Assembly (NCBI GenBank): GCA_028534125.1
Contig: CM052843.1
Coordinates: forward strand, 22,010,001-22,074,000
DNA length: 64,000 bases
From: Lama glama
Lineage: Eukaryota
Direction of reading: 5' to 3'
Below, piece after piece: positions 8,776 to 43,300 of this stretch. A program made the position numbers and the translations under genes. Position 1 is the first letter of the stretch, and every line of letters starts with the position of its first letter. Below the pieces are notes generated by a model. It worked only from the letters and a program-made list of their open reading frames with translations, had not been told where the DNA came from and made no database searches.

Positions 8776-8895
8776 CACATGCGTGTCCCAGGGCTGGGAC
8801 GCTGGGAGGCGGGGACACGTGCGTGTCCCAGGGCCGGGACGCTGGGAGGCGGGGACACGTGCGTGTCCCAGGGCAGGGATGCTGGGAGGCGGGGA
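8776..8895. repeat. 40-bp minisatellite, 3 copies
   Basis: Unit cac(a/g)tgcgtgtcccagggc(t/c/a)ggga(c/t)gctgggaggcgggga starting at 8776, 8816 and 8856. Confidence 0.95.
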
Positions 8896-9149
8896 CGCAG
8901 CGGAGGGCACGGGCCCCTTCGCTTATCTGCTTTCAGAGTGCCCTGGTCAAGTGGATTTGGGGGATACATTGTCTAGTTTTAACTGAACTAGTCCTTAAAT
9001 AGAGCACAAGTAGGTTCAGGTCATTTCTTCACAGACGCCCCGACTTGAGGGTGACCCTCACACGAAGGCACAAGCCCATGAGGAAAGGATGACAGAGCAG
9101 CCCCACCTCCTCCCACCCAACCCCCCGTTCACCGTGTGACCACCTAGGC

Positions 9150-10900
9150 AGACCCACAAGAAGCTGGCGATAAAGAAATACACATTTATTAACTAGAGAG
9201 ACGAGCCGATTCATGAGATAACAAATGAATCACTGAAGAGAAAACGAGCGAAGTGTGCACCGTGATTTAAATCCAGTGACAGCACAGCCGGTGAGACAGT
9301 CAAGCATCAGTACACAAATACCAGTTACACTTTAAGTGCCATCAAAGAGCAACTGCGACCTCGAACATCACAGTTACGTTAGCGTCAAAAATACTTATGA
9401 ACACGTGTAACAAAAGATGCTCAGACGTGTAACTTAAAACCTGAACACAATGCTGAGAGACACAATGAGGACCTAACAAACGGAGAGACACACCATGTCC
9501 ACGGGTCAGAAAAGCAACCCCGCTCAGTTCTACCCCGATGGCTACACAGGAGCGATGCAGCCCCAATCAAACCTTGGCAGGAGTTTTGAAACTGACAGGT
9601 TGATTCTAAAATTCACATGAAATGAAAATGATGTCAATTAGTCAAAACAACTTTGGAAAAGAACGACATTAAAGAATTCACGCTACCTGATTTGAAGAGC
9701 CACTGTAAAGCTGCGGGAATGAGCGCAGTGTGATGTTCCGTGAGAATGGACACAGCGATCAACGGGCAGATTAGAGCCCAAGACGCAGCTCACACTACGA
9801 GGCCACTTGACAGAAACGCCAGGGCAAGTCCGCGGAAGAGGAACCGTCTGTCCTGCAGACCAGAGGCCCACGTGAGAAACAATGAGCACCGACCCTTTCC
9901 TCGCGTGTACACGAGAATTAACTGCAGGGAAGCAGAGGTCCAAATGTAAGAGATAGAACCGTAAACCATGTAAAACACACATGAAAGAAACCTTTATGGC
10001 TCTGGATCAGGCAACACATTTTTAAGCAGCACATGCAAACTATGAACTATAAAATTAAATTTTGGTGAACTGAGCTTTCTCAAAACTCAAAACTTTTGCT
10101 TTCCAAAAGCCACTAGTAAAAGCATAAAGTCACCCACTGGTATCTGGCAACAGCATTCCATCCGTAACACATAAAGAATACTTACAACCTAATATTAAGA
10201 AGACATTCGGGGGAAGGAATAGCTCAGAGGTAGAGTGCATGCCTGGCATGCACGAGGTCCTAGGTTCAATCCCCAGCGCCTCCATCAAAAACAAGTAAAT
10301 AAATAAGTAGACCCATTGACCTCCCCCCAGAAAACAAATAAACAAAGTAACATTTAAAGACCCTTTAAAAAGACATTCAGTTCGCTAGTAATAGGAACAT
10401 GCAAATTAAGACCACAGTGAGTCCCCACTCACACCCACTAATGACTGAAATCGACAAGGCTGGCTGCACCGAGTGCTGTGGGGCCCGGGGCAAACGGCTC
10501 CCTTACCCTCCACTGCTGGTTTCAACGTGGGGGCCGGCCACCCTGGGAAACAGGTCAGCCCTTCCTCATGCAGGAAAACCTGTACTCACCCAGCAGGCCC
10601 TCTCCCAGGCGGTCACGCAGGAGCAGGAGACTCGTGCCCTCACGGGCGTCACCTGAACGAGCGCAGAGCACCACGAGCAGGAGCCAAAGTCGAGACCCAG
10701 TGTGCACGTCCAAGCGTCGCCTGCACCAGCACGTCCTTCACGGAACTGCGCCACGCGGAGGATGGTCCCCCACCGGGGCACGCCCTCTTTATCACATGAT
10801 TGGGGGTGGCCGGAGCCCAGCAGCAGGACCCAGGCATAACTCAAGGGACCCACTGTAACCCTCAGCATGTGGCCAGCACTCAGAACGCTGGCTGAACGCG
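9150..10900 (+). mobile_element. Ancient L1ME-type ORF2 3' half / 3' end remnant (hosts the SINE at 10209)
   Basis: gaaactgacaggttgattctaaaattcacatgaaatg, caaaacaactttggaaaagaa, ctacctgatttgaag and catgcaaattaagaccacagtgag are recognisable L1 ORF2 segments. Boundaries approximate. Confidence 0.78.
10209..10364 (+). mobile_element. Camelid tRNA-derived SINE (Vic-1-like) with target-site duplication
   Basis: A-box TAGCTCAGAGG, B-box GGTTCAATCCC, tRNA-Ala-like body and A-rich tail. TSD ttaagaagacattc (10195-10208) / ttaaaaagacattc (10365-10378). Inserted into an older L1. Confidence 0.88.
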
Positions 10901-11913
10901 GGGACCAATGCGACAAGTGAATGACTGCCACGCGCAGGCTAATTCCTGGTTTCCTGGCATTTGTGCCATGAAGACAGTCTTCCTCCGGAACCAGAATGAA
11001 GGCAGAGCCACGTGGATGAGAACACTGCTGGCCAGATCCTTGCCACAGTTTTAACTGTGAATTGCCTTTCCTGGTTTGCCTGTGTCCAGTCCCACCAGGA
11101 CATGCTCCCCCGGACACTCCAAGTGAGCGCCACACTAGGGATGAGGTCAGGGCAGAAAGGACGTCTGCACACAGCGTCACGCTTCTCGTGTGCCCGGGGC
11201 GCCTTGGCGGCAACGTTCATCTTAATGAAAGGCCAGGAAATTCGTCATCAGGCTAATAAGTACCTGCTTTCCCCGAGAAAGATCAGCAAGATGGTAGAGC
11301 GAGGTCAGTTTCACAGGCCACTGTCCCGGGGAAGAGGGGGCGGGGGGACGCCTCACTGAGGTTCCCCACAGGTCCAGGAACTTCTGCGGGTAGAGCACAT
11401 TTGACTCATCCACCTCCTGGGGCACTGCCCTTCTATAAGCTTTTCCACTTTAAGGGAACACGGCTGGTGGGGCCCAGGCTTGTGGAGGAGGAACCCACAG
11501 GGCTCCCTGACAAGTTTCCAGTGGGTGACAAGTGGCTCCGATTTGCCTGGACATGCTAGTGAAGTGCTCCCACCCATAGGGCAGGCTCCCGAGACCAGAC
11601 ATGCCAGCAGGGCGTCCACGTAGTCTGCTAGGGAGAGGAAGGGCTCACGGCTTCTCTTCCGAACCTTGTCTTTATAACAGCACTGCAACAATCTCTATGA
11701 ACTAAGTATTTGTCACAACTCGGTCATCTAACCAGAGTCACTAGGTTTCACAGGTGAGTGTAATCTGAATACACCCCCGCATTTGTTTCCTACGATCCTG
11801 TTAGAAACACAGCACCTGTTCCTTAAAACCTAAAGATAGACTTACCCTATGATCGAGCAATCCCACTCCTGGACATATATCCAGAGGAAACTCTTAATTT
11901 GAAAAGACATATG

Positions 11914-12426: not shown

Positions 12427-13610
12427 ATCACTATGCTATATACCAGAAACCAATACAACATTGCAAATCAACTATGATTTAATTTTTTAATCTTTTTGAA
12501 AAAGAAACAAAGCACCTGCTGGATATGAGTACATACAGGGATACCCTGTAACCATTAACTGTCGCAAACTCATAGTCACTATCCTTTCATGTTAGTTAAC
12601 AGTTCTCAGGGAATTTGCATGAGGATAACGCAGTGCCTGCCTTCACCAGGTATCCTCCACTCCACTCTTAAACAGCATCCCAGTCCTCCATCCAACAAAC
12701 AAATAAAACAAGGAAAGAAAATCGGAGACCTCATTTTGAACTGTTACTCCTGGTTGGCAGAATTTTTCTGCTTTCAGTGTAGCAAGGACAGTACATATAC
12801 TGTAAAATAATTTGTATTCAAAGGCATTTTCCCTTCTGAAGCTAAGCCAGTGACACGTTGGAGAATATTACAGGTTTTGTGCTCTGTGCTCAGCTAACCC
12901 ATGTATTGCTTAACTCAAAGAAGGTGTCCCAGCTGGTAAGAAGAGCAGCAAGTCTTTGGTTTGCAGTCACAGAGCCTGCCTTTCAAATAAGCAAAGGGTC
13001 CCTTTACTGGGGTATTTTCCAGAGCAGCAAGGTCGGGCTGCGCCCGGAGCCAGGGGCAGCTGTTAGCTTGTCTTTATTTGGGAGGCTGCCTCTTAACCAA
13101 CCTGAAAATTGCCAGGGGCTTTTCTCAGATTCCACTGACAGCCTCCACCCCCACCCACCCCCACCCACCCCCACCCACCCCCGAGAGCGAATGGGGGCAA
13201 AAAAAGATAGCTATTCCAAGTTCCTCTTGCTCTCAGTAACATCACCAAAAACTTGAAGGTATCCTGCAGCAGACTCCCTCCTGGCATCTGAGCAGAAGGA
13301 CTGACAACCTGAGAGCCAGCTCCTCGCCCTCCTGCACCCGCGGAACAGTCGTCCGGGCAACACACCTGCTCATCCCTGCAGCCCCTCGGGTTCCCAGACC
13401 TCCCTGAGGCCCCGAAGCCTCCCTGGTGTGACGCCCCCCACCGACATCCCCACACGGCACGCACACAGATTTCAGACCTTGAGGACTCACGGTGCAGTCC
13501 AGCCAAGGGGCTGTGAGCCCAAGCCAGCAGCACCTGGAGGGTCAAACCCGGACGTCACAGTCAGAGCACGGTCCGGCGCGCCTGCAGGGCTCTGCCGGCC
13601 AGACCGCGCC

Positions 13611-13797
13611 CGGCCCGGCAGCCAATCGGCGGCCGCCGAGCGTTGCCATGGCCACACCGCGTCTTCGGCGGCGCAGGGCTCGGCCCGGCAGCCAATCGGC
13701 GGCCGCCGAGACGTTGCCATGGCCACGCGGCCTGTGAGAGCCAAGCTCGCCCCAGCCCGGGAGCCAATCAGCGACCGCCCGGTGTTGCCATGGCCAC
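13611..13797 (+). promoter_or_regulatory. Three tandem CCAAT (NF-Y) + X-box (RFX) modules, ~71-bp period
   Basis: CCAAT at 13622, 13692 and 13764. GTTGCCATGGCCAC at 13642-13655, 13713-13726 and 13784-13797, each one mismatch from the RFX palindrome GTTGCCATGGCAAC. Confidence 0.85.
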
Positions 13798-13921
13798 GCC
13801 GAGAGTGAGGGACGCGCACGCGCGTGGTGGAGAACCGCAGCCGCTCCGCGCGCAGGGCTCGCAAGGGCCCCCGCAGCCACCCCCGGACACCCGCCGCGAG
13901 CCGGTGCCCTGAGCGCCCGAC

Positions 13922-13979
13922 ATGAACCGCAAGAAGCTGCAGAAGCTGACGGACTCCTTAACTAAAACTAGCAAGCACT
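13922..13979 (+). CDS. EFCAB1: EFCAB1 coding exon 1 ([19 protein letters not shown] + 1 nt)
   Basis: ATG at 13922 (gacATGa) with an in-frame TGA upstream at 13910-13912; donor GTAAGT at 13980. Confidence 0.95.
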
Positions 13980-16900
13980 GTAAGTAAGAATCAAGCGCCG
14001 GGCGGCAGAGGCTCCCTGGCCAGGTCTCCTGTCCCTCCCGGGGCGAGGGTCCCGCCTGCGGAGCCCGAGTGCGGGCCGAGCCCGTGCATGCCCAGCCCTA
14101 ACGAGAAATCTGGGGGGGAGCCCGACCGCAGCTCCTTGGGCGGCACCCACGCCCGCCCGGGGTCCCGAGGAGCGCTTCCAGGCATCCAGGCGCCCAGTTC
14201 CCCACACGCACGCACTCGCTTTGCAGACCCTCATTTAACGTGCCTCTGGGGCACAGAGGTGTGGTGTGTATGCCCAGGGGACACGCGCGGCTTTAGCCTC
14301 AGACGCAGACGGAAGACAAGGACGCAAAACCGCCGGACTCACGGAAAGTGGCACAACCAGCAGGCACCTGCTTTCTGGCTCTTCTTAGAGCAAATCAGCC
14401 CGCACAGGGCAAGTGCTGGGAACTTAGCAGGAGGCCCACGGGGGAAAGTGGGTGTCAGTGCCCACAGCCTCAGGAGGGATGAGCTGCGGGGGCACGGAGA
14501 CCTGGACCTCGGAGCGAGGAGGTTTGCTGGGAAACCAGACTGATCTGCTCCCAGCTCTAGAGCCCACTTTCCACAGTTTCCAAAGCGAAGGAAACTTGGC
14601 AGGTGGCAAGAGGCCCCTATGGAAGACGTCTGCTCTCATCTCACAAGCACTCTGAAAGGTGGCCCTAAAATTTCAGAGGTAACTTTAGAATTGTGTGCAA
14701 CTGAGAGGCAGAACTGTGCGTGGGCTGTGGATTGTGGCTTAGACCGGGAAGGGACTGTCTGACAAGCAGGTTTGTAAGGTGTGTGCTGATTGCAAAGCTA
14801 CTGGCTCCCTGAAGAAACAGAAGCCGTAATCCCAAGGCCATTGGTGCAAAACAGGAAGAACAAACATGTTTTGATGTGGTTTTAGATGTGACGGGATCTA
14901 CTCATATTTCATATCTAAAATAATGAGTGGTAGGAGATGCTTTCAGGATGGCACTGGGAATAAAAGTTCCAGTGGATATAAGCATCCTAAACTTCCAAAA
15001 AAAGTCATCCTATAATTAAGATATTATTATGATTATTATAATCTGATGAGAATTTTGTTCTGTTGTTGTTTTTCTTAAAATACTTCCATTTCTGGGAAAA
15101 GACCAGATCTCCTTAAAACATCTACCAAACTTTGAATAAACAATGCGAAACTGCTATACACAATGCTGAATTTGATTCAGTCTGTTTAGTGAGTTTACAA
15201 CATGTCGCAGACATTCCAAGAATGTATTTAGAGGTGAATGTACTTAAAGATAAGTGAAACCATGGCAATAAAACCAGTCTTGATTTTTGTTCTTACATAA
15301 AATTTTTAGTGTTTAAAAATTCATTCATAAGAACCTTGATGATTATTAGTTAAATTCTATAGAAATAGTGACAAATCATGGACATTATAATAATTTTGAG
15401 TTTCTTTAAATAGAAAACCTTTCTCCTGAAGTCAGGTTTCCTTCTAGTTGCCAGGTGATAATCCCAGCAGGGTGAAGTGGATAAATTTTGTAGAATCAGA
15501 GAAGAAGAAATTCCCTTAAGTGGAGGCCTAGTTAATCCACCACACTACAGAACAGACTCAGACCAATCCAAAAAGAGGAAAGCCAGTTCTCAAATTTCCT
15601 TAACTTCATTTAGTTTTGTATTCTTGAATTTAAGAAACATTTCAGCAAAAAATAATTTATCTTACAGAAAAAAATTACCCATCTTGGAACCTTTGGGTAA
15701 TAATTTAAGTTAATATATATTCTTTCACTTTTATTGCAGCCGAGATAGAAAAGTGGCTCATCTACCTTCCCTCAGCTAGCGTTTCACACACGTAAACAGA
15801 TTGTGTCATTCTTCGTGCAAGTTTTTCTTCCCCAGCCATTAACTTTGTTATGGAATGTTTTATGTTTTAGAATTTTGTTTAATTTTTAGAATATTTTTAT
15901 GTGGGTAGATGTACGTAACATAAAACTTACCATTTTAACTACCGTAAGTGCACACAGCCTGTGGCAGTAAGCACACGCACACTGTTGTGCAACCATCACC
16001 ACCGTCATCTCCAGAACTTTCTCATTTTCCCAAACTGAAACTCTGTCCCCAGTAAACTGTAACTGCACTTGCCCCAGCCCCTGGCCCATCATTCTACGTT
16101 CTGCCTCTGAATCTCCCCACTCCAGGTACATCATGTAAGTGCACTCATACAATGTTCGTCCTTTTGTGTCTGGCTTATTTCGCTCATAATGTCTTCACGT
16201 TCATCCATGCCATAGTGTGTGTCACAGTTTCCTTCCTTCTTGAAGCTGAATCATAATCCATTGTCTGGACAGACCACATCCTTCTCGCCCGCTCATCCAT
16301 CCATAGATACCTGGCCGCTGTGAGCGCCGGTGTACGGGTGTCAAGGCCTGTGTTGTCCATCCTGCACGGTCCATGCCTAGCGGTGGAGTCACTGGATCTC
16401 GCAGTATTTCTCTGTTTCACTTTTTTTGAGGCAGTGACATACCATTTTCTATGGCAACCACTAGCTCTTTTTAAAATGATAACCATTACATTCTTTTCTA
16501 CTATTTAATCAATTTATTTATCAATCATTTATTTTCCAAAGTTTTCAGCCTTCATCTTAAATTGTGGTCCCCAGAGCTGGAAATCGCCCTGGCCTGCAGG
16601 ATGTGGTGTGATTTCTTCGTTCCTTTGTGCTGTCTTCCGTTGTGTGCATGCAGCCTCCACCCGTTTTAAAAAATACTCAACCATAATTTTGTCGGTTTTG
16701 AAATAAAATCTTCCCCATCTTCCACCTATACCTCCTATTTAACCTCACTGTCGTGTTCTTAATGCCAGACACCAACGCTTCCACCCGCACACCTCAGACA
16801 GCGATTGGGACACAGTTAGCCCCGTGTTTATAAACACCGCCCGCCCACAGTTACATGTGTGACAAGCTCACGTGTGTGTGCACACCCTGGAGATAAAAGT

Positions 16901-19900
16901 GTCCTTCCTCCAAAGTGCTGCTGGACAGTTGCATGTTTTCACATCATCCACCATGAGAACTGGCATGGGTGCTAAAAGATGCTTAAGTCCTTCCTTATTG
17001 GAAAGTAGCTGATTCTGGTTTCCAAAACCTGGATTACGGATTCACCAAGGCTGATTGAAATGAAAACTGTTGCCTTGCTTTCATGAGCCTGGTGTTGTAT
17101 TCCCAGGGGAAGGTTAATTTGCAAGCCTCATCAATGCTTCTAATCAAAAAGTACCTTAACACCCCCTTGCTTGCTTTGACTCCTCCCTCTATGGCTTTGT
17201 CAAGCTTAGAGTCTGGACCCACAGTCACTCTGCGGGTAACTTGGCAAAGCTCTCTTCTTCTCTCCCAAGTGGGGCTGAACTTACACCTGCCTGAGGGAGG
17301 GGCTGCTGCTCCTGCCTCCATGGGGCCCTCAGGAGTGGCGTCTTCTGTTGGCCTGGGGGCCACGAAACTCAGCCCAGGACAGTCGCCTGTCGACAGCAAC
17401 ATATTTATGGCTTCAATGTTGTTTGTCTATAAAGTCTTCAAATGCAACATTTAAGCTAGAAACTAAAGATTAAAATGCATTTTGCCACGTCTTGATTTTA
17501 CTCTTTCACAGTTAATAAATTTGAAGTGAAATGTCTCATCAGTCTTTTCTATAACCTGGTGGGAGATGTAACCGAGCGGCAGGGTGTGGTCATTGGACTC
17601 GATCGCAATGCGTTTCGAAACATCCTGCATGTGACATTTGGAATGACAGATGACATGACCATGGACAGAGGTAAGAGGACAATCTTCAGATGGGCCAAAT
17701 CCAGCCATAACAGGGGAAAGTAGTTTGGGGTTTAGACATGCTCTTGGTGGGAAGCTTAACTTCTACATTCCCAGTTCCACCCAGAAATAAACCTCGGTTT
17801 ATATTCATGGGTAGGGAGATGGGGGGCGTAGGGAGGAGATGGGCATAGGGAGGAGACGGGGGCTGTAGGGAGGAGATGGGGGGCGTAGGGAGGAGATGGG
17901 GGTGTAGGGAGGGAGGTGGGGACCACTCTTTCTGTGTTTCTGTGTATTTAAGAAGAGGACAAAGCTTGGCTAACTAGGTTTCCCTTACTTTATATTAGAA
18001 ACCCTGAAATATTTCTCTTTCTACTTCATAAGTATAATAATAAAAAATTTGAAAAGGACCTGTATATTTCCTTAAATCATCAAAAGTATTTCCATAAAAA
18101 TAACATAATCTTATCTGTCACGTAATAGCATTACTCTTCTTGAGTAATAAAGACATAAAATCATATATTTTATGTTAATATATCAACGTATTTAATATAC
18201 CAGTATGTTCATATGTGAGCTGTTGGATCAATATGCTTAGACATTCAGAATTTACTTGTTCCCACAAAATGTCAAGGGACTCTTCCCAAAGCTTCAGTGA
18301 AAGTTCCCAGTGTTTCGACATCTCAGTGTCCTCCGTGGTCAGATGAGGGCACGGGGCCACGCGGCCCTGTGGTCCTGCCTGAAAGGTGGGCAGCACCAAA
18401 GCAGACGCATCACTGAGAACAGAAGCCCAGCACGCGTGTCCTGCCTGCTTCTCTCTCCGCAGTTTTCCGAGGTTTTGACAAAGACAACGACGGCTGTGTG
18501 AGTGTAACGGAGTGGGTGTGTGGACTATCAGTGTTTCTTCGAGGGACTCTGGAAGAAAAAATGAAATGTAAGCCTTCACGTTGCCCTCTCGGCTTGTTCA
18601 CGAGGTCCCTAAGGAGTCTAGCCCGGCGCCCTCCGGCCCAGCTGGGACGGTGGGCTTGTCTGCTGTCTGGTGGTTTGAATTCCCAGCAGCCTCTTTTATG
18701 GAGTGAATTCAAGTCAATGATAAGGATTGAAAAAAAAAATGAGAAAGAGGAAAATCAGGAGATTCCGAGGAGGAATCCGTGCCAAGCAAGACCGCGCAGG
18801 CTGACCACATATGCACACTTGCGTATGAAGGTGGGGAGCGCCTTACATACCTCATCACTGGAGTCGGAACCACAAAGGGAGAGAACATGGGTGCAAGTGT
18901 TCCCACTCTCAGTTAACTCCTCATTCACTCCAGGGGGCTCCGTTTCAGTCAGTTTCCCAAGATTTTCAAGATGAAATGTTAACTTGTCGGTGTTCCCGGC
19001 ACGCTCCCCGCAGCTGAGAGTGAAGAAGGTTGTTCTAAGATTGTCGAGTAGAGTCGACAAGTAGGCCTGCAGCCCTTTTTACAGAAACCGGGTTGCACGG
19101 AGGCCTTTGGCCTGAGAAGGACATTAACACTAGAGCCCTGGGCTCTGACCACTTGATTAGAGTGAGTGTCCCCTTGCTGACAGTAGCAAATTCTTGTTGG
19201 TTATTTTTTTTTTCAAGATTGCTTTGAAGTGTTTGATCTGAACGGCGATGGATTCATCTCAAAGGAGGAGATGTTCCACATGTTGAAGAACAGCCTTCTC
19301 AAGCAGCCGTCCGAAGAAGACCCTGACGAAGGAGTTAAAGATTTGGTCGAAATAACACTCAAGAAAATGGTAAATATGGGCAAGCTAGGCCACATAGGGG
19401 AGAGAAGTAAGAATTCAAATCACAGTGCCCACGTTTCCCACGTAGTGAAGTAATGCTCTTAGAGCGTGCTCTTTTGTTACGTAAAAGTTCTCTTCGACGT
19501 CAGTATCTGCCAGCTTTCCCCTGCTGATACTTGAACTGGAGGAGCAGTAGGTATTGGTGGTGGTGTCAGCATGTTAACTGATGCATGGCTGGCCCCCCAG
19601 GACCGCGACCACGACGGGAAGCTGTCCGTCGCAGACTACGAACAAGCCGTCAGAGAAGAGACTCTCCTACTGGAAGCATTTGGACCATGTCTGCCTGACC
19701 CAAAGGTGACAGTACTGCTTTCGCTGAACAGTGACCAAAATATACCGTAGGGCCAGCAGCCCAGGGCTTCCTGGTTTGGGGGGTGATCAGGTGAACCACA
19801 TTCCCCTCAGAAAATGGCTTCAGAAGAGAGAAAGCCCACTGAAGACAACAGCTGGTTCATGGCCTGGTACCTAGATGGATGGGTGGGTGGGTGGGGGATG

Positions 19901-20777
19901 GAAGGGTGGATGGGTGGGTGGGTGGATGGGTGGACAGATCTCGTAAGTGCCTGGTGCAGAGTTCTGGATCTCTGTCCTTCTGTCTCCTCAGGAATTTCAT
20001 CATTTACCTGCATCTTTACATTTCAACCTCTTCCCTCACTACTAAAACCTTTCTATCAGAATTTAAACAGATCTAAACCTGTCGCATCTGACAAACAAAA
20101 GAGAAGGGAGGGAGGGAAAGAACGTCCCCGAATCCCACACCTGCCCCTATTTGCTGTCCGAGGCTTTTTCACAGCCAGGCGTCTTAGAAGAATTGTCCGC
20201 ATTCGTGCCTTACACGACCACCACTTTCTCCTGTCTGCCCTTGACGCTGCTCTTGCCAAGGTCACCACGCCCGCCTAGTGAACAATCCCAAGGGTTCAGC
20301 TCTTGGGTTCTTGTCTTCCTCGCCCTCATCCCTTCCCCACCCCGAGCTCCTCGTCCAGCTTCTCCTGTCCAGGAAGCATCTGCGCTGCCCACCCCAGCCT
20401 GGCTGCGACATGGTCCTTCCTCCTGGACCCCCACTGTGTGCCCACCCTCCGGCCCGCCCTGCGGGCTCTGGCCTGTGAGCCGAGCTCAGTGGGCGGGGCT
20501 CCCGGGGCTGGACCACGTGGTCTCGCCTGCCTGAGACCCCAGAACTGCCCTGGGCCGGAGCGGAGTCACCCAGTTGCCAGCTGTGAGTGGTTCCTGACCC
20601 TCGCTCCTCCCCAGTCACTGCCGTCTCTCCAGACATTAAGGAGACACGGAGAACATTTCCTGTTGTTGTTCCCCCTTGTTGGAAGTCTGTACTAACGTGA
20701 GCACTTCTACTTCACAGAGCCAGATGGAATTTGAAGCCCAAGTATTCAAGGAGCCACACGAATTCAGCGAGATGTGA
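13922..20777 (+). CDS. EFCAB1: Calaxin / EF-hand calcium-binding domain protein 1, spliced 6-exon CDS, 212 aa
   Basis: Exons joined at GT-AG sites give [212 protein letters not shown]. Exon lengths 58+159+105+152+105+60=639 nt, phases consistent. Three EF-hand loops: [36 protein letters not shown]. Recognised as mammalian EFCAB1/CLXN from memory of the family sequence. Confidence 0.97.
15885..16460 (-). mobile_element. L1MB-like 3' end in EFCAB1 intron 1 (antisense)
   Basis: aacataaaacttaccattttaac...ttgtgcaaccatcaccacc...tccagaactttctcattttcccaaactgaaactctgt...tttgtgtctggcttatttcgct matches the reverse complement of L1MB 3' ends. Confidence 0.85.
17512..17670 (+). CDS. EFCAB1: EFCAB1 coding exon 2 (FNKFEVK...MTMDR), 159 nt, phase 1-1
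   Basis: Acceptor ttttactctttcacag, donor gtaaga; overlaps ORF-track entry 17526..17723. Confidence 0.95.
17809..17921. repeat. G-rich minisatellite (~20-23 bp, gtagggaggagatgggggc-like) in intron 2
   Basis: Five to six imperfect copies of tagggaggagatggg. Confidence 0.9.
18463..18567 (+). CDS. EFCAB1: EFCAB1 coding exon 3 ([18 protein letters not shown]...EEKMK), 105 nt, phase 1-1
   Basis: Acceptor cttctctctccgcag, donor gtaagc; encodes an EF-hand loop. Confidence 0.95.
19218..19369 (+). CDS. EFCAB1: EFCAB1 coding exon 4 ([18 protein letters not shown]...LKKM), 152 nt
   Basis: Acceptor is a poly-T tract followed by caag, donor gtaaat; canonical EF-hand; overlaps ORF-track entry 19229..19453. 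Confidence 0.96.
19601..19705 (+). CDS. EFCAB1: EFCAB1 coding exon 5 ([13 protein letters not shown]...LPDPK), 105 nt, phase 0-0
   Basis: Acceptor ggccccccag, donor gtgaca; encodes the last EF-hand loop and the [11 protein letters not shown] motif. Confidence 0.94.
19874..19934. repeat. (GGAT/GGGT)n simple repeat in intron 5
   Basis: gatggatgggtgggtgggtgggggatggaagggtggatgggtgggtgggtggatgggtgga. Confidence 0.9.
20718..20777 (+). CDS. EFCAB1: EFCAB1 terminal coding exon ([19 protein letters not shown])
   Basis: Branch point TACTAAC at 20690-20696, acceptor cttctacttcacag, stop TGA at 20775-20777. Confidence 0.93.
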   Translation, partial: SQMEFEAQVFKEPHEFSEM

Positions 20778-40300: not shown

Positions 40301-43300
40301 TTTAGAGGAGAGGAAAGTGAGGGAAGCACGAAGTAATGCTCGTCCCTAAACGCCGCCGACTCCTCAGAGTCACATCGCCAGCTGGGCAAGAAGGGCCACC
40401 GAGCCTGAGGTGAGCGTGGTCGTGTTCGACGCGGGTTTCTCTCCACACACGTTACACCCTAGATACATCGCTCCCCAGAAACAAGTCTCTGGTCGAAGAC
40501 GGCGTGCCACTTCCCCAGGCAGCGCTGCGGGCCAGCCGCGGAGTCTCGGGAAGACGTGACACCACCTCGAGCCTTGGCGGCTTCCCGGCCCCGGAGGGCT
40601 CCAGGTTCACTGACGTACGTCCCCGCACTGACCCGGCCCGCGGGGGAGGCCACAGAGACGGCAGGGCAACCTGGCGCCCGACGCCACACCTGCGTCTCTC
40701 CCACTGGCTTCTGTAAACTCAGGCTCCTTCTGGAACCTTCTAGGACCAGGAGACTGTGACCTACTGGCCACACATACAGGTCACCTGCGTTTTCTAACGT
40801 CTTCAAGGCGGGGAGTTTCTCTGCCTCGTGGCTCCAGACCAGAGGTCCCTGCCAGGCCTGTTCAGCCTGACGCCCTTCCAGCACATAATACCTGCCGACA
40901 CGCTCTTTCATTTTCCTCAAACGTTTTCAGCAGGTTTGGGCATTAATTCTGAATTCTGAGCTGTCTACACCCTCCTGATTGTAACAACCACACACTGCCC
41001 ACACAGACGGTCAGTCCATCGCTGCCGTGGGGTCTGTGCGCAGGGGTGAGGCGTCTTCCTCTGGCTGTGGGGCGTGCGCCCAGCCTGGCCCTGGGGCAGA
41101 GCCCAGGGAAGGACGGCCCAGGTTGGGGAGTGCGGGCCGGTCACGGTAGCTTCCTCGGGGGCAGGTCTCTGTCCTTGGCCGTCTGTGTTTGGGGGCCACA
41201 CGAGGTGTTACCAGTGCTCATGCCCCAGGACGGAAGGCAAGGCTTCCAGACTGAGGCGCGGGGGACGGGCTCCTCGGTCAGGAAGGGCTGGGGCAGCGAT
41301 GCCCTCCGGGGGGGAGGCAGCTCCCACAGAGGCTCCCAGTGGGACCACCGGCAGCTCCAGCAGCTTCAAGGAGCGGCAGGAGACGAGCCGGGAGGGTGAG
41401 GCAGACGCCGAGCGCTCCCTGGACGTCCTGACCCCAGTCTCTTCACACAGAAGCAGGACGTGCCGACCCCAAGACCCGGCGTCCACCCCGAACTCCTGTG
41501 TTACCCACATCCGCCCTCCTCCTTGGCGAGGGTTCCGCTTCGCTTCTTAACGGGGCGGACTTCCCTCACACAGCAGCACCATCAGCCCCGCCCAAGGCCA
41601 GTGCGCACCACCAGCTCCGTCCCCTCCGTGGCGACCTCGGCCCTGGGGCTGTAGTTCCTATGTTCGTGGAGCTTTGACTGAGACATTAAACCTAACTCGG
41701 TCCTCTTCTTCCAAAGCTGCATTAATACAGGGAAGGTTTAACAGACTGTCCAGGCAGCCGAGCCCACGAGGGTTCCCTGCAAGTGCCCCGATCGGGGACT
41801 GCTTTCCTCTGCGTTTGGGATTTTAGCAGTACTGCAGAGTCTCAGGTTTTTACGAGCACTTGAAATCTTGGATCTGACTGCGATCTGGGCTCCATGAACT
41901 CATTTCCAATGGCTGAAATGTCTACCTTCCATCTAAAATTGGGAGGTCACCAAATCGGAAGTACTGAGAGCGTGGGCATGAGGGGACAGCGAGCTGGAAA
42001 CGGCCATGAGTTACCATGGAAACTAACCAAAATGTCCCCACGTAGCCCCCTGGTCAGCAGCGCTGACGCGCCAGCAGGGCTCATGGGAAGGCGCGCCCCG
42101 CCCTCCGGCCTGGGGTGCCCGTGCGTTTGGAGACCGTGAGGCCCAGGCCTGGGTCTCAGCCCCAGACGTTTCGTCAGCCAAGGTCACGGCACCCTCCTGA
42201 GCCCGTGATCCCAGTGGACGTGCTTGTGTTGAAGTTCGTGGGGAGACTGCATTTCTCCTTCCCAGCAGGTCTAATCTGGGGCTAAAGGTGAGTGTGAAGT
42301 GAGCCCGCCCACCGCTCCCCGCTCCCCGTCCACGGTCTCTGCAGACCCCAGGCCCCAGCCCTACAACCCGGACCTGATCTCACCACCACCGACGTTTAAT
42401 AAGACGCCAGTCCCTGCGGCGTGGAGCACATGCATCAGGGGAGCGGAAGATCTGTTTTTAAAAAATCAGAGAATGTTCATCTTTCTTGGCATAAAGAATG
42501 TCTGATGTTCAATTGACTAAAAAAATTCTCAGTGTAAAATTTCATGCAGATCAGATACAATTTTCTTGTCACTGCTTTGTTTTATTTCTGGGTGTTCAAG
42601 GTCTTTTTTGCTTAGATCTTCTCCGTCGCTTCCATTCGCTGTCTTGCCCACCCGTCGCCCTAGTCCTCCGGTCTGAAGACCCCTGACACCCCCAGTGGAG
42701 TGACCAGCACCGAGCTGCAAACTGCTCTTCCATGGGGAGCATTCAGGAAACGTGGACGATGTTCTAAGAGCGTGAAGGCCTAACAGGCCTGTGAGCCCAG
42801 CATCTCTGCCCTTTTAACAAAGGTGACGAACAATCCTTTTAGACTTTACGCTGGGATTCAGTTAGGAGATTCGTCGCAGGATTGGCTGCACAGAATTTCA
42901 GAGACGCAGCGGGCGGGGCCAGCCAGGAGGAGGGAAAGCTCCTCAGCTTGTTTCCACTCGTCCACTTCTCTGCTCCCAGACCGACAGAAGGCGGGGCGGG
43001 GCCTCAGCTGCTGGCGAGATGAGGGCCTGAGCGCCCACGGTGCGTGTCCGCAGCAGGTCCCAGTCAGCGCCGAGCAAGACTAGAACCCCGAGCAGGCACC
43101 AACACCTGGGAGCAGGAAACACGGAACTTGCGTGCATGCTGTTAGAAGCTCTGCTCGCTGCGTGCGTTTAACTATGCACATAAGACCTGCATTTAACGTC
43201 TCTGGCATCTTTAAGGACGCAAGGAGGCTTCTGACCCAGAGAAAGTGAGTCATTCAGAAAAGAAGTCCTCCAGCCTGTGACCATCAAGCGGAAATGCGAC

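Follow-up and report, generated by a model that had tools for sequence, protein, structure and literature searches.

The start of the calaxin gene of the llama (CLXN, or EFCAB1) raises the question of how a pair of motifs, a CCAAT box followed by an X-box, came to stand three times in one promoter, and what the repetition does there. The window referred to throughout is the whole stretch of Lama glama DNA that was analysed, 64,000 nucleotides of contig CM052843.1. The gene has an intact reading frame of 212 codons (13922..20777) in six exons, and its product is identical to takin calaxin at 194 of 212 positions and to human calaxin at 187 of 212, which bears out the name EFCAB1 (calaxin) given to it in a preliminary description of this DNA. 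Searches with exon 2 matched PDB chains of calaxin as well as mammalian calaxins; by these PDB and homologue matches the gene encodes a cilium component, as expected for the class of RFX-dependent ciliary promoters. The RAG2 protein of the genome is identical to a record from Vicugna pacos, which points to a South American camelid. A Pfam scan of 24 of the 64 long open reading frames of the window gave a match only for a CLXN exon. Also present in the window are a G-rich 20-bp minisatellite in CLXN intron 2 (17815-17921), a 40-bp minisatellite (3 copies, 95%; 8776-8896) and, 21 kb downstream of CLXN, a near-consensus X-box palindrome with one mismatch (42010-42023).

The features of the promoter and the gene are as follows.

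13500..14399, no strand: CpG island (GC 0.59-0.76, CpG observed/expected 0.68-1.06 in 200-nt windows)
13611..13655, plus strand: core of unit 1, equal to the core of unit 2 save for a 1-nt indel (alignment)
13620..13627, plus strand: CCAAT box 1, predicted NF-Y site (CCAAT at 13622-13626; motif match)
13642..13655, no strand: X-box 1, predicted RFX site, a near-palindrome (motif match)
13656..13689, plus strand: spacer A, at background identity to spacer B and matching the flank before unit 1 at 23/35 positions
13690..13697, plus strand: CCAAT box 2, predicted NF-Y site (CCAAT at 13692-13696; motif match)
13713..13726, no strand: X-box 2, predicted RFX site (motif match)
13727..13761, plus strand: spacer B, its first 24 nt homologous at a 71-nt lag to the sequence after X-box 3
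13762..13769, plus strand: CCAAT box 3, predicted NF-Y site (CCAAT at 13764-13768; motif match)
13775..13780, minus strand: GC box, in the inner spacer of unit 3 only, which we take to be an Sp/KLF-type motif
13784..13797, no strand: X-box 3, predicted RFX site, 124 nt before the CLXN start codon
13922-13979, 17512-17670, 18463-18567, 19218-19369, 19601-19705 and 20718-20777, plus strand: coding exons of CLXN/EFCAB1, with GT-AG introns

The X-boxes are exact 14-bp copies of GTTGCCATGGCCAC, starting at 13642, 13713 and 13784 in steps of 71 and 71, and no further site with two or fewer mismatches to this sequence was found in the whole window. The consensus applied for RFX was GTNRCC-N0-3-RGYAAC, and that for NF-Y RRCCAATSR. 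All three X-boxes fit the former with 0 mismatches on the minus strand and are the only sites to do so among its 28 strand-matches in the window; the set gives 6 strand-matches, a number reached in 0 of 100 shuffles. The CCAAT boxes (AGCCAATC, starting at 13620, 13690 and 13762; CCAAT steps 70 and 72) match the NF-Y flank consensus in 3/3 cases and are predicted sites of that factor. From CCAAT start to X-box start the distance is 20, 21 and 20 nt, with gaps of 15, 16 and 15 nt between the two motifs, and Markov simulation of 20,000 regions with matching dinucleotide composition produced no CCAAT-X module at all. Both the 71-bp repetition of identical X-boxes and the offsets of the preceding CCAAT boxes, as first described, were reproduced. 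The promoter stretch is single-copy in the genome.

In mouse, the Efcab1 promoter carries peaks of RFX1 at -76, RFX2 at -149 and RFX3 at -62 (PMC7498320, Tables S1, S6, S8 and S10); the llama X-boxes lie 124-280 nt before the CLXN ATG, within the CpG island. Rfx3-/- ependymal cells lose Efcab1 expression about tenfold (logFC -3.41, P 2.2e-23), and RFX2 targets the gene in both testis and ependyma; the cited parts of that study do not list it as changed in Rfx1 or Rfx2 knockouts (PMC7498320). The same source reports that the Y-box is enriched in peaks common to RFX1-3, and proposes an X-Y partnership in ciliated cells. The earlier assignment of the X-boxes as RFX sites of a ciliary gene is strengthened by this binding and RFX3 dependence, and RFX control of CLXN is well supported by analogy with the mouse orthologue.

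We consider it probable that the three CCAAT-X modules arose by stepwise local duplications and jointly form predicted landing sites for RFX and NF-Y that switch calaxin on in ciliated cells and sperm. RFX, mainly RFX3 but also RFX1/2, would land on the modules together with NF-Y, and NF-Y would keep the region nucleosome-free and support initiation in both directions. A search of the open literature for NF-Y occupancy at the calaxin gene found none; a composite RFX-NFY motif was not found in the main passages of PMC13216069, and NFY is not mentioned in the main text of bioRxiv 085571. The open literature searched (subscription papers apart) already knows Efcab1 to be under RFX control and describes no repeated CCAAT-X cassette at the gene, though composite motifs may be listed in supplements.

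The preliminary description further proposed that tandem amplification of the module may tune calaxin dosage. This is not supported and sits poorly with heterozygous Efcab1+/- mice, whose sperm swim at 103 vs 109 µm/s in the cited passages of PMC6586612. Extra X-box copies need not add up, because a second X-box is able to repress in C. elegans (PMC3245922, in the part cited). On the preferred reading, the module copies would add robustness and not a lineage-specific dose.

An array of this kind might come from faulty assembly, but this source is ruled out by RNA contigs of two independent studies (runs X15 and X19), which bridge X-box 1, spacer A and X-box 2. Both carry a 16-nt gap in unit 1 and otherwise show the layout of the window, from X-box 1 to CCAAT box 3 or from X-box 1 to X-box 2. 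The contig of run X15, from a related species, perhaps an Old World camel, differs from the window by 5 substitutions and one indel in 160 nt; since both runs carry X-box 1, spacer A and X-box 2, the array is real and older than the split from that species. Nine other DNA datasets contain 0.87-0.95 of the promoter words, a range in which point changes are inseparable from the loss of a unit.

The repeat is not the uniform triplicated cassette of about 71 bp that had been described: the CCAAT steps are 70 and 72, and the likeness of units 1 and 2 is limited to a 45-bp core. Within that core the reported near-identity holds, with 45/45 aligned positions identical apart from the 1-nt indel. Beyond it the flanks behave differently: the 24 nt after X-box 1 match those after X-box 2 at 8/24 positions, which is background (null mean 7.7), and the 24 nt after X-box 2 match those after X-box 3 at 15/24 (P ~0.002). 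In the X15 contig, two letters of spacer B equal those 71 nt on, raising the latter count to 17/24. Because their downstream flanks still match at the 71-nt lag, we infer that an old duplication gave rise to units 2 and 3, and the identical cores of units 1 and 2 would stem from a later duplication or gene conversion. A minisatellite or VNTR with copies alike over the whole period was considered and rejected, as the array is absent among the 83 rows given by Tandem Repeats Finder for the window and spacers A and B stand at background identity.

The earlier statement that unit 3 keeps both motifs intact while its spacers have diverged also holds. Between units 2 and 3, 22/22 motif positions are identical against 9/15 in the inner spacer and ~55-65% in the outer flanks (Fisher P 0.002, with 10 upstream bases); between units 1 and 3 the counts are 22/22 and 9 of 14-15, again with ~55-65% in the outer flanks (Fisher P 0.01), and both P values are optimistic, because the motif borders were chosen partly from the observed identity. 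With that reservation, the contrast between conserved motifs and drifted spacers favours selection on at least two modules, as had been suggested. It also bears on a reading that we regard as unlikely, though less so than the others discussed below: that only the proximal unit 3 works, duplication within the GC-rich island having left units 1 and 2 behind as neutral by-products whose likeness is due to recent copying or conversion. The resemblance between these two is indeed as strong at non-motif as at motif positions (Fisher P 0.49), as in any recent copy, and half a dose looks nearly sufficient in mouse sperm (PMC6586612, in the passages cited); a period that differs in puma (77, see below) points the same way. 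Units 2 and 3, however, keep both motifs perfectly across an inner spacer and flanks that have drifted to ~60%, and the mouse RFX peak centres at 62, 76 and 149 bp upstream, noisy as such centres are, fit more than one bound site (PMC7498320, in the tables cited).

The view of other species came from predicted protein gene models that are mis-extended and read back into the promoter. Among the calaxin proteins examined, only those of puma, marmoset and naked mole-rat extend in this way; the extensions of the pig models are intron-derived and uninformative. Searches with the promoter read as protein gave 0 of 1043 candidates, and a second search 0 matches; the orthologous promoter was not recognised among the 108 loci of a metagenome scan. 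Puma model P0020 follows the llama sequence collinearly through the flank upstream of the array (106 nt from a shared anchor to CCAAT, vs 105 nt in the window), and in it a gap of 15 nt separates CCAAT from the X-box. A second CCAAT stands 77 nt on, where the model splices out; a GT lies 17 nt after it, and a second X-box is not visible. The puma spacer resembles the sequence after X-box 3, with a score reached in 8 of 300 shuffles, and is unlike both spacer A (119/300) and spacer B (132/300); everything on puma was read back from a single predicted protein. Given the second CCAAT at 77 nt and this resemblance, the repetition is probably not confined to camelids, its period is likely not fixed and the doubling in cats may be independent of that in camelids. 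A clear lineage novelty, as first supposed, is therefore not upheld. The marmoset and naked mole-rat models begin at an ATG within the equivalent of X-box 3, 51 and 44 codons upstream, which makes X-box 3 the likely ancestral copy.

The motif order recalls the X-Y modules of MHC class II promoters, whose W/S-X-X2-Y enhanceosome involves RFX5-RFXAP-RFXANK, CREB, NF-Y and CIITA. Read on the minus strand, the CLXN units share with the SXY arrangement an X-box that has ATTGG a short distance after it on the same strand; the cited parts of the literature describe W/S-X-X2-Y promoters as fixed in order and spacing (PMC7866136, PMC2677874, PMC4381081), with an XY length of 47-49 bp (PMC4381081) and a 29-bp peak for RFX5 besides other distances (PMC4889920, PMC7793273). 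The DRA promoter of the same genome (L149:365-408, on a 2.1-kb unplaced contig whose exon 1 matches HLA-DR alpha) shows the classical X-X2-Y layout. There, 28 nt separate the X half-site from ATTGG and include a GTCA half-site, whereas at CLXN the gap is 15-16 nt, and the inner spacers hold neither TGACG/CGTCA nor a GTCA half-site. The absence of an X2 box rests on this half-site, as the mismatch counts to the X2 8-mer (3 for DRA, 3-4 for CLXN) do not separate the two. CLXN differs further in its full palindromic X-box and three tandem copies, and its module is flipped relative to the coding gene, so that the MHC II order holds only for an antisense transcript (see below). From the 28-nt gap with GTCA in DRA against 15-16 nt and none at CLXN, we conclude that the cassette, though it may act in the manner of an X-Y pair, does not belong to the SXY modules; the likeness to MHC class II X-Y modules drawn in the preliminary description finds no support in its geometry.

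The fuller form of that proposal, in which camelids multiplied a helically phased MHC-II-like X-Y cassette and so gained a higher calaxin dose in sperm and motile cilia, is in our view improbable. The shared strand order, a gap that stays at 15-16 nt through all three copies and the puma module, and the importance of X-Y spacing and orientation at BTN3A and MHC promoters (PMC7753138, PMC4381081, in the passages cited) speak for it, as does the third copy, spacer A having no counterpart at that place in puma. Against it stand the gap and half-site differences from DRA, the repetition that appears in puma and the near-normal sperm speed of heterozygous mice. Successive modules are moreover 6.7-6.9 helical turns apart (71 bp being 6.8 turns), so the copies are out of phase with each other. 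Neither this nor the 77 bp in puma fits a functionally fixed 71-bp period; under the preferred reading of stepwise duplication, the period would be a leftover of the duplicated length and not a helical-phase rule, and the 15-16 nt gap would be kept by inheritance and local fit of NF-Y and RFX.

Other promoters come closer in single respects. The SX-13bp-CCAAT module of BTN3A and CD74, functionally tested there, shares with CLXN a short distance from X to NF-Y site unlike that of MHC II; its CCAAT is reversed (X then CCAAT, as at RSPH1), it has X2 and S and it serves NLRC5/CIITA, unlike CLXN (PMC7753138, in the passages cited). Promoters with several NF-Y sites in CpG islands resemble CLXN in their multiple CCAAT boxes and are often co-bound by RFX5, but their spacings are 19, 24-28, 35-37 and 43 bp, mostly without an X-box, compared with 70/72 and an X-box each at CLXN (Dolfini et al. 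2016, PMC4889920, in the parts cited). Several X-boxes per RFX target also occur in C. elegans genes, where tuning of expression was proposed; there, unlike at CLXN, the boxes have no CCAAT partner and the distal box represses (Chu et al. 2012, PMC3245922, in the part cited). The nearest class is that of the RFX1-3 motile-cilia promoters, mouse Efcab1 among them, with a consensus X-box near the start of a motile-cilia gene, Y-box enrichment in shared peaks and a minority with 2-3 close sites; the cited parts of that study describe no repeated CCAAT-X unit or fixed gap, and CLXN has three perfect X-boxes, each with its own CCAAT (Lemeille et al. 2020, PMC7498320). In the present genome, the RSPH1 promoter (L169:8913-9046) has two modules of X half-site and CCAAT, with gaps of 12 and 17 nt, at 183 and 285 nt from the ATG; the half-sites are 102 nt apart and the CCAAT orientation is opposite to that at CLXN. 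Module doubling thus recurs at CLXN and RSPH1, and the geometry does not.

The gap was also followed genome-wide. Gaps of 14-17 nt made up 10/38 (P 0.03), 9/60 (P 0.45) and 9/33 (P 0.03) matches in three overlapping pattern searches, and those of 15-16 nt alone 5/38 (P 0.12); the three CLXN copies and exact duplicates on small scaffolds had been removed, and the gap window was chosen post hoc. Any genome-wide preference for a gap of 14-17 nt is weak. Among 30 fetched pattern loci, only one besides the CLXN promoter is CpG-island-like (L003, gap 22), and of 9 genomic matches to a tandem-module pattern, 2 are the CLXN promoter, alone in having full X-boxes. The metagenome scan placed 87 of its 108 loci (L032-L139) in three dispersed repeat families; gaps in the 21 non-redundant groups (14 nt, 3; 15 nt, 8; 16 nt, 6; 17 nt, 4) do not amount to a test of gap preference. 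Those three families, with a perfect X-box palindrome 15-16 nt behind CCAAT, are probably mobile elements of animal hosts and unrelated to the window. Further patterns were noted in the llama genome: with CCAAT in the opposite orientation, 10/68 matches fall at the shortest allowed spacing (5 nt, the edge of the searched range) and may reflect a composite motif or a repeat family; L146/L147 (C31 ~14,439,300) is a CpG-poor 68-bp tandem repeat with CCAAT and X half-site 19 nt apart; and L142 (C13 ~49,674,300) has five clustered CCAAT boxes and an X half-site at a 16-nt gap.

Transcription from the promoter adds the following features, the uORFs counting only if transcribed.

13478..13580, minus strand: exon of an antisense transcript (13580 a minimum for the upper end; donor GT 13477-13476; RNA contigs of runs X15 and X19)
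11080..11263, minus strand: second antisense exon, lower end approximate (acceptor AG 11265-11264; one contig, run X19)
13648..13737, plus strand: potential uORF 1, 29 aa, from the ATG in X-box 1
13719..13808, plus strand: potential uORF 2, 29 aa, from X-box 2
13790..13912, plus strand: potential uORF 3, 40 aa, from X-box 3, in frame with CLXN, its stop 9 nt before the CLXN ATG

The X19 contig joins 13478 to 11263, with 29/30 letters at the joint matching the window, and the junction is GT-AG only if read on the minus strand. A break at the same antisense donor (13478) is also seen in the contig of run X15, which stems from a different study, and the loose end of that contig past the donor found no placement within the window. 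Because a minus-strand GT-AG splice joint leaves it, the CLXN promoter is likely bidirectional (joint seen in one RNA contig of a related species). Also noted in this region were a 216-codon open reading frame overlapping the second antisense exon (10566-11216, minus strand; no Pfam match), a CRE-like half-site CGTCA within the antisense exon, 65 nt upstream of the first CCAAT (13553-13558), and a 10-bp C-rich tandem repeat of 3.8 copies in the antisense intron, upstream of the promoter (13145-13182).

The uORFs suggest a role at the level of translation, in which the X-box ATGs give transcripts started upstream 1-3 uORFs and poor translation, so that the choice of start site sets the amount of calaxin protein; we think this has little chance of being right, and the same applies to its variant for marmoset and mole-rat, with an N-terminal extension in place of a uORF. 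All three X-box ATGs have G at -3 and +4, and the main CLXN ATG only at -3, but this context is forced by the RFX consensus. For marmoset and naked mole-rat, the gene models open with the X-box 3 ATG, although in-frame models are the only kind that a protein database can show; in the window this ATG is likewise in frame, 44 codons upstream, but stopped. RNA contigs cover 13627-13785; as they carry no strand, their source could be antisense RNA or DNA. In mouse the RFX peaks fall before the annotated start, which places the X-boxes outside most transcripts (PMC7498320, in the tables cited), and the X-box uORFs would matter only for transcripts that start upstream.

A bolder combination of these elements is doubtful, if somewhat less so than the translational or MHC-like readings: a composite NF-Y/RFX3 element of motile cilia, CCAAT-15/16-X-box, roughly a helical turn less in length than its MHC-II counterpart and free of CREB/CIITA, that was repeatedly multiplied as a unit, each copy raising transcription yet adding a uORF to transcripts begun upstream. 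If so, multiplication would have taken place at least two times at CLXN, in camelids and cats, and in another geometry at RSPH1, and a built-in limiter would link copy number, start-site choice and the level of calaxin protein.

Returning to the stepwise-duplication reading, we take the CLXN array to be a real, selected-looking multi-site RFX promoter of fairly ordinary design. Efcab1-null mice show signs of ciliary dyskinesia yet are fertile (PMC6586612, in the passages cited), and because loss of the gene gives this phenotype, the CLXN promoter is a place to seek non-coding variants. With three strong predicted sites at a kept gap of 15-16 nt, clean reporter tests of spacing and copy number are possible. 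The cassette would offer a compact natural test bed for the pairing of RFX1-3 with NF-Y in ciliated cells, in the style of RFX5 at MHC-II, as suggested for this class of promoters (PMC7498320, in the parts cited).
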